A stretch of 55,299 nt of DNA from an uncultured Gammaproteobacteria bacterium (GTDB lineage: Bacteria; Patescibacteriota; Microgenomatia; CAZETR01; Amesbacteraceae), in assembly GCA_964543035.1 (NCBI GenBank), contig CAZIVL010000001.1:433736-489034 (forward strand), given 5' to 3'. Below the pieces are notes generated by a model, which was not told the DNA's origin, did not search any database, and saw only the letters and a list, made by a program, of their open reading frames with translations. The translations under genes were made by a program, and so were the position numbers. Positions 6,418 through 12,418 of this stretch are shown here, one piece after another (position 1 is the first letter of the stretch; every line of letters begins with the position of its first letter).

Positions 6418-6425
6418 GTTTATTG

Positions 6426-6496
6426 CTGCGGGACCTGGAGTCGAACCAAGATAAACGGGGCCAAAACCCGTTGTCCTACCTTTAGACGATCCCGCA
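6426..6496 (-). tRNA. tRNA-Gln (anticodon TTG)
   Basis: Hand fold of the reverse complement: TGCGGGA-TC-GTCT..GGAC-A-ACGGG-TTTTGGC-CCCGT-TTAT-CTTGG-TTCGACT-CCAGG-TCCCGCA-G. The U1:A72 pair is typical of Gln. CCA is not encoded. Confidence 0.8.
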
Positions 6497-6576
6497 ACGC
6501 AAGCATTAAGCTTGTCTGAATGCATTTTACAGCCATATCTGCCAATAAGGCTATACCAGTGGTAAAATTTGACCAA

Positions 6577-6648
6577 GTCCCCGTAGCTCAATGGATAGAG
6601 CAACTCCCTTCTAAGGAGAAGATGCTAGTTCGATTCTAGCCGGGGACA
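6577..6648 (+). tRNA. tRNA-Arg (anticodon TCT)
   Basis: GTCCCCG-TA-GCTC-AATGGATA-GAGC-A-ACTCC-CTTCTAA-GGAGA-AGAT-GCTAG-TTCGATT-CTAGC-CGGGGAC-A. Confidence 0.8.
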
Positions 6649-6670
6649 CAGGTATAATTAGGCTTATCTT

Positions 6671-6743
6671 GGGTCCGTAGCTCAGCTGGTAGAGCAAATC
6701 CCTCTTAAGGATGCGGTCGTGGGTTCGAATCCCACCGGGCCCA
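6671..6743 (+). tRNA. tRNA-Lys (anticodon CTT)
   Basis: GGGTCCG-TA-GCTC-AGCTGGTA-GAGC..AATCC-CTCTTAA-GGATG..GTGGG-TTCGAAT-CCCAC-CGGGCCC-A. Confidence 0.8.
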
Positions 6744-6821
6744 CTTGACACAAATAGTCACCGAAACGAGCACAAAAGATGTGATTGACGATTTTACAAA
6801 GGCCGGTGGTACTATCAAGAT

Positions 6822-7046: not shown

Positions 7047-7337
7047 ATGCCCCTAACACAAAAAATAATTGAAGACGTAATCAGAAAAGTAATCGTGTCA
7101 GAACTAACAGGAGTAAATGCAAAACTCCACACTATTAGTTCTGATGTATCTGTGGTCAAGGAAGATCTGAAAAAACTAAGTAAAAAAGTAAGCAATCTTT
7201 CTGACACTGTTACGAGTTTTTCAGCAGATGTGCAAAAATTTGATCAAGAACAGACAATACTCTCAAGCCAAATTCCAAATCGCACAGATCGCATAGAAAA
7301 ACTCGAAAAAATAGTTTTTGGCTCCATCCAAGCCTAG
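7047..7337 (+). CDS. small coiled-coil protein (96 aa)
   Basis: VKEDLKKLSKKVSNLSDTVTSFSADVQKFDQEQ...RTDRIEKLEKIVFG. It resembles 6822-7037 and 14687-14974 in style. Confidence 0.5.
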   Translation: MPLTQKIIEDVIRKVIVSELTGVNAKLHTISSDVSVVKEDLKKLSKKVSNLSDTVTSFSADVQKFDQEQTILSSQIPNRTDRIEKLEKIVFGSIQA

Positions 7338-7684
7338 TTTTTTCCAACTTTGGCCACGGCCATTTTCTCCATTTTTTCAAGATTGTTACCAATAATTTGA
7401 TATCCAGGTCCTTTAATTTTTTCGAGCTCATCTCGATAGGCTCTTGCTTTAACAAAAAATTCTTCTACTTTTCCCGTATCGACCAAGGGTTTCACCTCAT
7501 CAGGTTTCATCCAGGAGTTTAGCTCTCCAATAGCCCTTCTGGCCTGATCCGAAGATTCAATAATATTTGCGGACTGATCGACAAAATGCTCAAAGTATCT
7601 TGCCCATGAGGCAACACACTCGGCTGGAGTTCGTGCGGATGCCGCTTCGATTAGCAATTTGGTGCTGGTAGTTGCTTCTTCCAT
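7334..7684 (-). CDS. hypothetical protein (116 aa)
   Basis: Clean ORF with no recognisable motif. Its ATG lies 41 nt downstream (minus sense) of the structured element A core. Confidence 0.5.
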   Translation of the reverse strand: MEEATTSTKLLIEAASARTPAECVASWARYFEHFVDQSANIIESSDQARRAIGELNSWMKPDEVKPLVDTGKVEEFFVKARAYRDELEKIKGPGYQIIGNNLEKMEKMAVAKVGKN

Positions 7685-7699
7685 GGACCAATTTTATCT

Positions 7700-8066
7700 T
7701 AAATAACATTAATTTTTGGTGTGTGGGGTCGGAGTTTATATTTTTTGAGTGTGGTAGGTTTCTTGCTTATCGCAAGTCCTTTACTGATTACAACATTTGT
7801 AACCAGATCCACAGCTCTCATTGTCCAATCTGGGGTAATCCCAAATTAGCAATGCAAAATATAAGAGTCCGACCCCCAAAATCTTTCTCGAGCATGCTCG
7901 TTATCCAAAGCGCAATTGCTTTGAAAAAAGAGTGTTCACTCGATCGAAATTTCGACGAGATCGTGAAAATTACTTACAGGGGTGTCCATGAAACAAGACA
8001 AGCCAATTGGCCCATCCATTCATGCTTTGCTCCGCTTCTGGAACAAACTTTTGACACCCCAATTAC
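7700..8066 (-). ncRNA. Candidate structured RNA element, copy A (unknown family), directly 3' of the 289-aa gene
   Basis: Core closed by GGGGTCGGA (7725-7733)/TCCGACCCC (7868-7876). Internal hairpins are CTTGC/GCAAG (7762-7776), TTACA/TGTAA (7788-7802) and TGGG-GTAAT-CCCA (7831-7843). A distal stem GGGGTGTC (7979-7986)/GACACCCC (8053-8060) ends 6 nt from the stop codon. The architecture is shared with copy B with compensatory changes. Strand assignment is tentative. Confidence 0.6.
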
Positions 8067-8936
8067 TTATCCGAAAAACACGATAAGCACAACTACAATC
8101 ACAACGGCCGCCACGATCGCCAAACCCAGCAAGAAGTTTTCAACTTCCTCTTGAATCTGCTGGATCAGGCGGATGAGGCTATAGTTCGAGCCGGCGGGGT
8201 GAGTCTCAAGCACGGGTGTGTGCCTTGAGTGTTGATCGGAATCGTCCCGGGGCGTGCTGGGCTTGGGCTTCGGCGCCGGCGGAGTGGAAATCGGGGCACG
8301 CGGCTCCATCTTCTTCAAAACTTCGGGCTTCGTCTCCTCGATGGTCACATGCGTGACTGAAACATACACGGTATTCGTGATGTTCATCGAATTGTCGTAC
8401 ACGATCTGGCCGGTGTTGGTCCAATTCCCGTTGCTGTAGTTAAAACCAGCAGAATTCGGACCTGACACGACGTTCGAAACGATGTTGCTATTGCTGACGT
8501 TACCCACGGGGGTAGTCAGTACGGGAGTCGCATTGTTCAGCGGCTCTTCAATGAAAAAAGCTTTCAGAGAAACGTTGAACCAATCGCAATTGGTGCCACT
8601 TACTTTGAATTGCGACCACCCGTTGTAGGGTTGACCATCGGCCAGCGCGAGGCTGTCGACACCCCAAACTTCGGGAATGCCAAAAACAAAGATGCCGCCG
8701 CGATCCGTCACCCCATATTGGATATCGCCATTGGACAAATGAAGTTCAACCAGTGTGTTGTACACGGGCTGAGCATTCTCGTCCTGAACAAGGACCTGCA
8801 CAAAGTACAATGGGCAATCCTTGCCTTCGGGGTGAACCACGGGCTGGCCACAGTCCGCATAGGCCGTAGGAACGAAAGTTCCAACGACGATAACCAGTAA
8901 CAGACCAAACAGGGCGAAGAAGATTTTCTTAGCCAT
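8067..8936 (-). CDS. secreted type I membrane protein with a carboxypeptidase-regulatory-like (CarboxypepD_reg) domain and a C-terminal TM anchor
   Basis: Signal peptide MAKKIFFALFGLLLVIVVGTFVPTAYA, then YFVQVLVQDENAQPVYNTLVELHLSNGDIQYGVTDRGGIFVFG, a Pro-rich PPAPKPKPSTP stretch, and C-terminal LGLAIVAAVVIVVVLIVFFG. RBS AAGGAGG precedes the ATG. It is visibly GC-richer than its neighbours. Confidence 0.75.
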   Translation of the reverse strand: MAKKIFFALFGLLLVIVVGTFVPTAYADCGQPVVHPEGKDCPLYFVQVLVQDENAQPVYNTLVELHLSNGDIQYGVTDRGGIFVFGIPEVWGVDSLALADGQPYNGWSQFKVSGTNCDWFNVSLKAFFIEEPLNNATPVLTTPVGNVSNSNIVSNVVSGPNSAGFNYSNGNWTNTGQIVYDNSMNITNTVYVSVTHVTIEETKPEVLKKMEPRAPISTPPAPKPKPSTPRDDSDQHSRHTPVLETHPAGSNYSLIRLIQQIQEEVENFLLGLAIVAAVVIVVVLIVFFG

Positions 8937-9194
8937 TTCTACTGGACCTCCTTAAAGGCCAGGTGTTTACACTCAGATGCAAGCATCTAAGGTAAACCAA
9001 AAAAGAAAATAGGGTTGATTTCACAGGCGTATTGAACGCAGCGGAGACACAAGATAAGGCTCGGGCTAGCACTCCCTTGCACTATCACTAGTGTCACCAA
9101 AAGGTGACAATAATTTGTGTCCCCATTGCGTCCAACAGACCAATGAAAACCCTTTAGTAATTCTCGAATCTCGATTTTTAATGTACTAGACTTC

Positions 9195-9266
9195 TGCATT
9201 TTCGGTCTACCGAAGCACGCTTTGTGCGTAGGAGACCTCATCAGCCCCGCTCAGCGGAGTAATGCA
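9195..9266 (-). ncRNA. Hammerhead ribozyme, type III topology (candidate)
   Basis: The reverse complement reads UGCAUU-A-CUCCGC-UGA-GCGGGG-CUGAUGA-GGUCU..(24 nt)..AGACC-GAA-AAUGCA. All invariant core nucleotides are present in order, and stems I (6 bp), II (5 bp plus extension) and III (6 bp) are present. The NUH site is UUA. Confidence 0.8.
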
Positions 9267-9394
9267 TATGGACCAAATTTTTAAGGGTCTTAAATTACTT
9301 ACGACCTTACGGTCGAAGTATTTTTGCTGTCGGACTTCGTCCGAACTATGACGCTGCATATCTTGATAGATATTTCGCGTCGCAATAAATAATT

Positions 9395-9815
9395 GTTATT
9401 TTCGTGTGTGGGGTAGGTGCTTGTGTCTTGTTTAGTGTGTGTTAATTTCTGCTCGTAGCAGAGTCTTCAACGATTCAAATTGCTCTGAATCGTTTTACAC
9501 GCTTGTTGTCCGTCATCTGGGTTAATCCCAAACGAAAGCCAACTTATACAAGATGCAAATGCACCTACCCTCAAGTTTTGTTTCTCCAGCAATGTCGCTG
9601 AATTAGACGCAACGTCTAACGAGCAAAAAAGCTAGGTATCCAAAACCCGAGAGGTTTCAATCTTCTGCAATCCACAATTAGGATTGACTTGCGGTCAAAG
9701 ACAAAAGTCATTGGCACAGAAGAGAAAGAGTTAGTTATCCGCCAGCCGGTTCTATGTTCAACCACTCGGTTGATTCACGGGGTTATCCCATTACATAGAA
9801 CCAGCTGATCGGTCT
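9395..9815 (-). ncRNA. Candidate structured RNA element, copy B (same family as 7700-8066), directly 3' of the 637-aa gene
   Basis: Core closed by GGGTAGGTGC (9411-9420)/GCACCTACCC (9561-9570). Hairpins are TCTGCT/AGCAGA (9448-9462), AACGATTC/GAATCGTT (9469-9494) and TGGG-TTAAT-CCCA (9518-9530). The distal 15-bp stem 9743-9757/9793-9807 starts 12 nt from the stop codon. Its single mismatch is C.A on plus, which is G.U on minus. Confidence 0.6.
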
Positions 9816-11873: not shown

Positions 11874-12418
11874 AAGAACCTCCTTGGCTCTTATTTTTCA
11901 AAAAAGTACACGATGGTGAACGAACAGGTGATAGACTTTTCCCTAAAGTCTCTTCAGCGTATTACATGTCTAGACATTTTTTTGTCCATTACATGAATAA
12001 GTCTGGTTGCGACATACGTCACTATAAATCCTTCAGCTTGAGGTGCTGACAAAATGTGGATTTATGCAGGGTTTACGAACGGGGAAATAATAGGGGGTAA
12101 TAGAGGAAGATGCGAGGTGTGAAACGCAGTGGAAACCCAAATAACATTAGTATGATCAGTACCTGTCGGTTCAACAAAAATTGACTTTAACCAACAACTA
12201 ATCCCTTACCAAATCACTAGATTCCCAATGCGTCTCACAAGATGCACTTCCTTTAAACTAACTCTAAAACCTCTCTTTTTAACGTGCTAGCGTTATTAAG
12301 TAGTTACAGGATTAGTCTGAAAGCTATTTCCAGGCTTCCTAACTACGACTATAGGATACCATTAATCCCATAGTTTGTCAAGGGCAAATACATATCAGAT
12401 ACTCATTCTTCCCTCTCC

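Follow-up and report, generated by a model that had tools for sequence, protein, structure and literature searches.

In prophage-like regions of bacteria, hammerhead ribozymes occur on the flanks of single genes or of short blocks of genes, and it is documented that they separate the cistrons of long bacterial transcripts (Perreault et al. 2011, PMC3088659). Motifs of the kind of DUF3800-I, drum, skipping-rope and raiA do not act as ordinary riboswitches do; their function is unknown and a ribozyme had been suspected in some of them (Weinberg et al. 2017, PMC5737381). The literature that we searched gave no description of structured RNAs or hammerheads in Patescibacteria. These bacteria, also known as the candidate phyla radiation (CPR), make up a large share of bacterial diversity and, to our knowledge, almost nothing is known of their regulatory or catalytic RNAs. 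Here, we analyzed a stretch of 55,299 nucleotides (nt) from one of their genomes, hereafter the window, in whose coordinates all positions are given. Judged by its nearest Obg relatives, the source organism is a Microgenomates-like member of the group. It contains two copies of the same multi-helix fold, of ~160-170 nt each, that flank the gene of a surface protein of 289 amino acids (aa). The RNA strand of both copies is the minus strand, with copy A at 7719..7876 and copy B at 9404..9570. The results below show that A and B are real, that they represent a structured RNA domain maintained by selection, and that Rfam has no family for it.

Fold, strand and conservation of the A/B domain

Covariance model (CM) R1 recognizes both copies, A with 196 bits and B with 156 bits, and finds no third one in the window. 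Each related locus also has two copies, at fixed syntenic positions. The long conserved blocks (17- to 27-nt) occur at just these two sites in 55 kb, where shuffles give an expectation of 0. Stop codons interrupt almost all frames of A and B and no conserved open reading frame (ORF) is found on either strand; in other words, the domain is non-coding. The initial annotation, made from the letters of the window, had listed helices and shared blocks in both copies, and we found all of them in place, including TCTGGG(G/T)TAATCCCAAA and GTGTGTGGGG. It had also called the blocks strictly conserved, but TTGTCC and TGCAAA are not conserved in the orthologues.

To describe the fold, we used an alignment (A5) of six sequences, i.e., A and B from the window and from two related loci, L040 and L042. 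RNAalifold predicted 38 pairs from the six sequences, of which 17 show double (compensatory) changes. When the 41-pair structure is placed on A5, 94.2% of the pair cells are canonical and both partners have changed in 18 of the 41 pairs. The alignment has a covariation score of 0.468, compared with 0.199 in shuffles; none of the 500 shuffles reaches the observed values, and moving the partners by 1-3 columns gives at most 0.083. These values rest on six sequences, from three closely related genomes and two paralogue groups. All six sequences also fold individually into the same architecture. The proposal that the structure was kept through sequence change is thus borne out: A and B are a functional structured nucleic acid whose shape is maintained through compensatory change.

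The domain is closed by a G+C-rich helix, P1, which pairs 7876-7868 with 7733-7725 in A (arms in window orientation: GGGGTCGGA at 7725-7733 and TCCGACCCC at 7868-7876) and 9570-9561 with 9420-9411 in B (GGGTAGGTGC at 9411-9420 and GCACCTACCC at 9561-9570). P1 is extended by P2, which is absent in the B copy of L040, and together they enclose two three-way junctions. The first bears a long hairpin, P3. A connector with a bulged base, P4, leads to the second, from which hairpins P5 and P6 emerge, both of them covarying. The tip of P3, UUUGGG-AUUNN-CCCAGAU with a U·G pair, is sequence-invariant in the six copies; it reads UUUGGG-AUUAC-CCCAGAU in A (7845-7828), and the apical hairpin of B lies at 9532-9515. 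Also invariant are the AAG between P5 and P6, the top of the P6 stem with its loop (UGC-N-A-NN-AGCA), and an unpaired tail, CCCCACACAC, located directly 3′ of P1 (7728-7719 in A, 9413-9404 in B) and followed by an A/U-rich stretch. Read in this direction, P1 is followed by CACACAC(C/G)AAAA. An automated search for loop-loop or pseudoknot covariation recovered nested helices and a hairpin upstream of the domain (P-1, see below), and nothing else. Two additional pairings were rejected: the B copies do not preserve the apparent complementarity of the P3 loop to the 3′ strand of P5, and an extension of P1 (AUUUUG/CAAAAU) exists in the A copies only and shows no covariation.

The functional strand is the minus strand, which has the same sense as the flanking genes. 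This follows from four observations. G·U cells are in excess over A·C cells when the alignment is read in the minus-strand sense (23 vs 6). The minimum free energy is lower in sense than in antisense in 6/6 sequences. CM R1 gives 153-196 bits in sense and at most 29 bits in antisense. Finally, a hammerhead, which is functional as RNA only, lies on the same strand as A and B (see next section). The single-sequence folds, scored against shuffled controls, have z-scores of -8.6 and -8.9 on the minus strand and of -4.8 and -6.6 on the plus strand. The initial annotation had left the strand unfixed and had written out the plus strand, opposite to the functional one.

The gene bracketed by B and A (8067..8936, minus strand) encodes a membrane-anchored protein with one distant homologue, of 42% identity over 47% of the length. 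This homologue is in L040, a contig of a metagenome-assembled genome from Hainich groundwater that is syntenic with the window and has both copies around the homologous gene. L042 was reached via Obg (89% identical) and also has both copies, at the same positions. Compared with L040, the window has 76% amino-acid identity in Obg and 78% in a solute-binding protein, and the housekeeping proteins are 76-89% identical across the three genomes. Given these orthologues, the initial annotation was right that the copies do not result from a recent duplication of a miniature inverted-repeat transposable element (MITE). The A unit is 70-97% identical in DNA, far above the adjacent coding sequence. B orthologues are 51-58% identical and the fold survives in all of them. 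Since A orthologues are 77-90% identical, and A and B share 47-62% of their positions, the duplication must have occurred before the three genomes diverged, which makes A and B ancient paralogues. The same figures qualify the earlier statement that the copies share little primary sequence, which is partly true. In loci with 61-65% Obg identity, CM R1 found no A/B copy. The novelty of the domain is at the level of the RNA family, and its known distribution is narrow and lineage-restricted.

The homologous unit is larger than the extent of ~155 nt first proposed. At the RNA 5′ side, homology continues for ~110 nt as a row of simple hairpins, some with U runs, and at the 3′ side for ~25 nt, comprising the tail and an AU-rich motif. 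In the 5′ flank of A (7889..7941), which is homologous to that of B, a terminator-like hairpin with U6 (7941-7924) is followed by hairpin P-1 with loop AAUUGCG (7923-7906) and by the palindromic hairpin P0, CGAGCAUGCUCG (7900-7889), then GAGAAAGAUUUUG into P1. The flank of B (9587..9686) has the hairpin CAAUCC-UAAUUGU-GGAUUG (9686-9668), the hairpin GAAACCUCUCGGGUUUU with a U run (9658-9642), P-1 (9619-9603) and P0 (9600-9587), all on the minus strand. Of the 6 pairs of P-1, 5 show covariation in the comparison of the six units, and a conserved GAGAAA-rich stretch separates the upstream hairpins from P1. The block 9718-9660 is 80-97% identical to L040, and the hairpin at 9686-9668 also occurs in a distant locus, L048, with a compensatory change. 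After the tail, A has the A-rich/AU-rich motif CAAAAAUUAAUGUUAUUUAAGAU (7695..7718) and B the AU-rich motif GAAAAUAACAAUUAUUUAUUG (9380..9403), again on the minus strand; all six units (6/6) carry this partly palindromic motif as AAAA-N-RUUAUUUA. From one genome to another, P1 keeps a constant distance to the upstream stop codon (A, about 190-196 nt; B, about 241-252 nt). Directly after the stop of the 637-aa gene upstream of B there is a 15-bp inverted repeat (9743-9807, 93% complementary), which is probably a terminator or processing hairpin of that gene.

As proposed initially, the domain belongs to no known RNA family. At gathering thresholds, the 4227 models of Rfam 15 identified in the whole window the 15 tRNAs and nothing else. 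These models include tmRNA, RNase P, SRP, 6S and Y RNA, all riboswitches, the twister, pistol, hatchet, HDV and glmS ribozymes, HEARO, GOLLD/ROOL and the DUF3800 motifs. When the threshold was relaxed to E≤10, the 2.1-kb region gave two chance matches outside A/B, and 200-nt slices of A and B gave 0 matches, i.e., all models miss both copies. ARAGORN also found tRNAs only in the window, and no tmRNA. Searches for wider homologues were equally unproductive. The loop pattern had 36 matches in viral contigs, all chance or coding; the loop combined with GGACAA had one chance coding match in GTDB genomes, this pattern being too strict because GGACAA is not conserved; and the loop combined with the tail had 0 matches in JGI metagenomes and 0 in viral contigs. 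There was no blastn match of A/B to phages and plasmids.

The hammerhead and other conserved elements

The initial annotation had missed an element adjacent to B. By motif and covariation, the segment 9193..9268 (minus strand) is a complete type III hammerhead ribozyme, located downstream of B on the same strand, at a spacing of 48-144 nt in the loci compared. Its layout is UGCAUU-A|CUCCGC-UGA-GCGGGG-CUGAUGA-GGUCU…AGACC-GAAA-AAUGCA, with stem III UGCAUU/AAUGCA, stem I CUCCGC-UGA-GCGGGG, the core CUGAUGA at 9244-9238, and a long stem II GGUCU...AGACC. Cleavage is predicted to occur after A9260 (9260|9259). Bacterial hammerheads have been accepted on the basis of an intact core, H17 and intact core-adjacent pairs (PMC3088659). 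The window element has the core C3-U4-G5-A6-N7-G8-A9 and G12-A13-A14, H17 in the context UGCAUU-A|C, and the pairs C1.1-G2.1, G10.1-C11.1 and A15.1-U16.1. Loops cap stems I and II, and stem III is the open one, which is the type III arrangement; cleavage would therefore leave B on the 5′ product and the core on the RNA that continues into the 289-aa gene.

The hammerhead is kept in L040 and L042, and also in the more distant L045 and L048. Among 6 hammerhead sequences from four genomes, CUGAUGA and GAAA are invariant and stems III, I and II covary. That of L048, which has the canonical GUC site, is matched over its full length by Rfam Hammerhead_3 with 30.2 bits (E 5e-5); a 26-nt insert in stem II keeps it below the gathering score of 48.5 bits. 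A scan of JGI metagenomes based on the hammerhead returned one further hammerhead (L050), which is not accompanied by an A/B domain. In L045 and L048, a different, rod-like structured element abuts stem III of the hammerhead, at the position that B has in the window; CM R1 does not recognize it. Of all the indications that this region works at the RNA level, the hammerhead is the strongest.

Element C (9043..9124, minus strand) is a third structured block that has been conserved. It is situated downstream of the hammerhead and ahead of the Shine-Dalgarno sequence of the 289-aa gene, and includes a closing helix (GGGGACACAA/UUGUGUCUCC), an inner hairpin with compensatory changes and the invariant GUGCUAGC. 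Element C is 80-97% identical to its counterpart in L040 (~8016-8097), and is also found in L042 (~1450-1535), twice in L045 (~8455-8530 and ~11885-11960) and in L048 (~2105-2180). It is thus more widely conserved than A/B, and has no Rfam match. Two minus-strand ORFs, of 84 aa (8987-9241) and 50 aa (9207-9359), run across the hammerhead, element C and further conserved non-coding hairpins, and are unlikely to be genes; the 450 nt that precede the 289-aa gene appear to be non-coding throughout.

In the distant, Microgenomates-like genomes, these elements are part of repeated non-coding modules, at 8244-9290 and 11670-12732 of L045 and at 1760-2620 of L048 (all minus strand). The order in these modules is the rod-like element fused to the type III hammerhead, element C, the conserved motif GAAAGUUUUGACA-N7-8-UAUAAU, and a hairpin-rich RNA of ~90 nt with a terminator at its end. 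The modules of L045 adjoin DUF3800 genes. Another conserved intergenic block is found upstream of a TrwB/VirD4-like ATPase gene, at 12209-12336 of the window (plus strand), 5348-5475 of L040 (minus) and 3849-3976 of L042 (plus). It also holds GUGCUAGC and has no Rfam match. Within the coding sequence of the 289-aa protein, ~60-75 nt at 8205-8290 (minus strand) have 93-100% DNA identity to L040, in a gene that is otherwise poorly conserved. The translation of this block reads ...PRDDSDQHSR..., and within it lies the hairpin CUCAAGGCAC-ACACCC-GUGCUUGAG, which provides one more loop with CACAC.

The 289-aa gene is the sole flanking gene that is homologous in all three genomes. The gene after A is a 116-aa ORF in the window (7334-7684, minus strand) and an unrelated 663-aa gene in L040 and L042. 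The first ~20 nt of the linker after the A tail are kept although the downstream gene differs. The 116-aa protein is an orphan, with 0 homologues among 5.8 billion proteins, and scans of the flanking proteins with Pfam and PHROGs assigned no function. The sequence preceding the AUG of the 116-aa ORF, AAAAUUGGUCCAU (7672-7700), resembles the linker between B and the hammerhead; this likeness hints at a recombination between the two units and at a replacement of the 663-aa gene. More broadly, the A/B locus is in a variable island between a tRNA-Gln/Arg/Lys cluster (6425-6744), part of the 15 tRNA genes in the 55-kb window, and SurA-like and Obg genes. The gene content of the island differs among the three genomes, with Fic and NYN genes in L042 and a giant PKD-domain protein in L040.

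Candidate roles of the domain

Terminator-like hairpins with U runs are located upstream of both units, and a terminator scan listed no terminator-like site between the domain and whichever comes first, a start codon or the hammerhead. The reading that fits this best places the domain in the 5′ part of the transcription unit to which the downstream gene belongs. Our leading interpretation, which we hold tentatively, is that it is a portable structured leader or processing module. The domain would be recognized via its invariant hairpin and its tail, and could protect the 5′ end, be bound by a protein, or offer its CA/AU-rich tail to ribosomes at starts without a Shine-Dalgarno sequence; the start codons after A have none. 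It would not be the regulator of one particular gene family. The more specific suggestion of a leader for the 116-aa gene did not hold, as this ORF is an orphan and the orthologous A copies precede the unrelated 663-aa gene. The transcript of the B unit would be severed at the hammerhead that follows after 48-144 nt; this would free the B domain with a 2′,3′-cyclic phosphate end, and the 289-aa mRNA would be left with a 5′-OH end and with the hammerhead core and element C at its front. If this is true, a portable leader or processing module would be a way to organize gene expression with few protein regulators.

Several points weigh against this interpretation. The consensus promoter scan near both units gave no passing site, and the -35/-10 hexamers that can be read by eye there are weak. 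If the hairpins ahead of the units terminate poorly, the upstream mRNA could end with the domain. With its two three-way junctions and invariant loops, the domain exceeds what a stabilizer or a leader needs, which points to a more specific partner, be it a ligand, a protein or an RNA. The 48-144 nt that separate B from the hammerhead are a variable spacer, which does not suggest tight coupling. Cmscan with Rfam did not report the window hammerhead, which we attribute to its UUA cleavage triplet and its 34-nt stem II. Finally, the covariation events are few and phylogenetically linked, as they come from six sequences and two paralogue groups.

The interpretation that survives next best, which we regard as possible with limited confidence, is that of a stand-alone RNA present as two paralogues, either a small RNA acting in trans or a scaffold for a ribonucleoprotein. 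It would be transcribed from a promoter of its own or produced by processing, which the hammerhead would do for B. The invariant hairpin would then be a protein site, or the unpaired CCCCACACAC tail a base-pairing seed. Indeed, the helices drift but neither the apical hairpin, including its U·G pair, nor the single-stranded tail varies, terminator-like hairpins lie upstream, the gene downstream of A is not conserved, and the hammerhead would free the B RNA. Yet, there is no intrinsic terminator or U run after P1, and no partner protein can be identified since the flanking proteins lack Pfam or PHROG assignments. The complement of the tail, GUGUGUGGG, is not enriched in the window, with 11 matches at ≤1 mismatch against 9.5 expected. 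For the two units as genes of small RNAs, the scan returned no consensus promoter, and weak hexamers can be read by eye; the hammerhead could make the 3′ end of B, and A has no equivalent.

The domain might instead be the distal 3′ untranslated region (UTR) of the upstream surface-protein mRNAs, the 637-aa gene being upstream of B and the 289-aa gene upstream of A, where it would act as a cap against exonucleases, with the hammerhead trimming the B transcript. A and B do have the sense of the upstream genes, the units follow the stop codons at a fixed distance within a post-stop region that is conserved as a whole, and A stays with a homologous upstream gene when the downstream gene changes. 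We nonetheless find this doubtful, because one or two terminator-like elements, made of a hairpin plus U6, stand between the stop codon and the domain, because the window has three more hairpins between B and the hammerhead site, so that B would not be 3′-terminal, and because the complexity of the domain is beyond that of known 3′ stabilizers.

There is a small chance that the domain is a ligand-sensing, riboswitch-like aptamer for the downstream genes. It resembles aptamers in its size, multi-junction fold, conserved junction and loop nucleotides and position upstream of starts, and the CCACA within the tail, as read from the sequences, could compete with the 3′ strand of P4. However, the downstream genes (116 aa, 663 aa and 289 aa) are unrelated, no terminator or Shine-Dalgarno-sequestering expression platform is found, the hammerhead would uncouple B from its gene, and no Rfam riboswitch matches. 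A classical riboswitch is thus unlikely. We would give about as little credit to the idea that A/B and the hammerhead form a new catalytic or allosteric RNA system. In a self-cleaving version, the domain would cut its own 5′ side, and the segment up to the hammerhead would leave with 5′-OH and 2′,3′-cyclic-phosphate ends, ready for ligation or circularization. In a sensor version, the domain would gate the cleavage by the hammerhead, which would make it the first natural allosteric hammerhead. The element fused to stem III in L045 and L048 would fit a family of composite devices in Patescibacteria.

Taken by itself, the possibility of a new self-cleaving or catalytic RNA that cooperates with the hammerhead, e.g., by excising a segment for ligation or circularization, seems improbable to us. 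The ribozyme classes twister-sister, pistol and hatchet were found through their association with hammerhead and twister loci, and here the domain is close to a hammerhead in all three genomes, has a complex fold with invariant unpaired nucleotides, and is replaced in distant relatives by a different structured element that abuts stem III. Against this, similar suspicions for other orphan motifs failed in experiments (PMC5737381). Furthermore, A has no nearby hammerhead, the distance from B to its own is variable, a size of ~170 nt is above that of all small self-cleaving classes, and no core of a known ribozyme was detected. Should the domain turn out to be catalytic or ligand-sensing, it would represent a new functional RNA class.

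Least probable of all, and by our estimate hardly credible, is a folded single-stranded DNA, which a mobile island would use, e.g., as an origin of transfer, as a single-strand promoter or as a site for recombination: structure-recognized sites such as attC keep their fold through sequence change, and the locus is in an island of variable gene content between a tRNA cluster and housekeeping genes, with a TrwB/VirD4-like ATPase, but the arms show no attC-type core sites (R″ RYYYAAC / R′ GTTRRRY), no integrase or relaxase is among the neighboring proteins scanned, the copies are at fixed syntenic positions and co-oriented with genes and with an RNA-only hammerhead, and the fold is branched with an invariant U·G pair. 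The recombination or cassette boundary envisaged at first is thus not supported, as integron-type core sites are missing.

Three known identities were also rejected. The domain is not an attC site, since the arms GGGGTCGGA/TCCGACCCC and GGGTAGGTGC/GCACCTACCC have no GTT core; no integron integrase domain was found among the neighboring proteins scanned (within about 8 kb). It is not a MITE or a repeat derived from an insertion sequence, given two copies in 55 kb and two per related locus, at fixed positions and with 47-62% identity. It is not an intrinsic terminator either, as there is no U run after P1 and the terminator scan does not list it.

Whatever the role, a reduced genome of roughly 1 Mb keeps several elaborate non-coding RNA structures around fast-evolving surface-protein genes. 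The two ~170-nt paralogues, the hammerhead that the Rfam scans missed and the third block are RNA structures under stronger constraint than the surface proteins themselves.

Comparison with known systems

The ompA and aprE leaders are 5′-terminal mRNA stabilizers, and known stabilizers of this kind are simple hairpins. As in these leaders, a helix in A/B would close the 5′ end whatever gene follows, and an unstructured A/U/C-rich stretch precedes the start. A/B differ from them by having two three-way junctions and invariant nucleotides, and their 5′ end is a putative one. Tandem arrangements of sensors and ribozymes are represented by the glmS ribozyme and by the c-di-GMP-II aptamer beside a group I intron. 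Here too, a structured domain is upstream of a self-processing RNA in what would be one transcript, and the upstream element of L045 and L048 touches stem III. In contrast to these systems, no ligand or coupling helix was identified for A/B, the spacer is variable (48-144 nt), and A has no ribozyme.

The attC sites of integrons share with A/B direct repeats that bracket a gene, a fold that outlasts the sequence, bulged bases in the stem and variable adjoining content. The differences are that A/B have no R″/R′ cores and no integrase among the neighboring proteins scanned, and that they are branched, ~170 nt long, endowed with invariant loops, represented by orthologues in place and co-oriented with a ribozyme.

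The orphan motifs DUF3800-I, drum, skipping-rope and raiA (Weinberg et al. 2017, PMC5737381) are, like A/B, multi-helix structures with strong covariation and invariant unpaired nucleotides. Unlike them, A/B have no Rfam match and no 3′ terminator, and are found in three related Patescibacteria genomes as a conserved pair around one gene. The other close parallel is with the bacterial hammerheads of Perreault et al. (PMC3088659). There is a single hammerhead in our locus, where the gene is bracketed by two larger domains that have no hammerhead core. As in the described cases, it has a canonical core on the sense strand of an intergenic region, by a single gene of unknown function in a variable island, and its expected role would be the same, i.e., cutting a long transcript into pieces.

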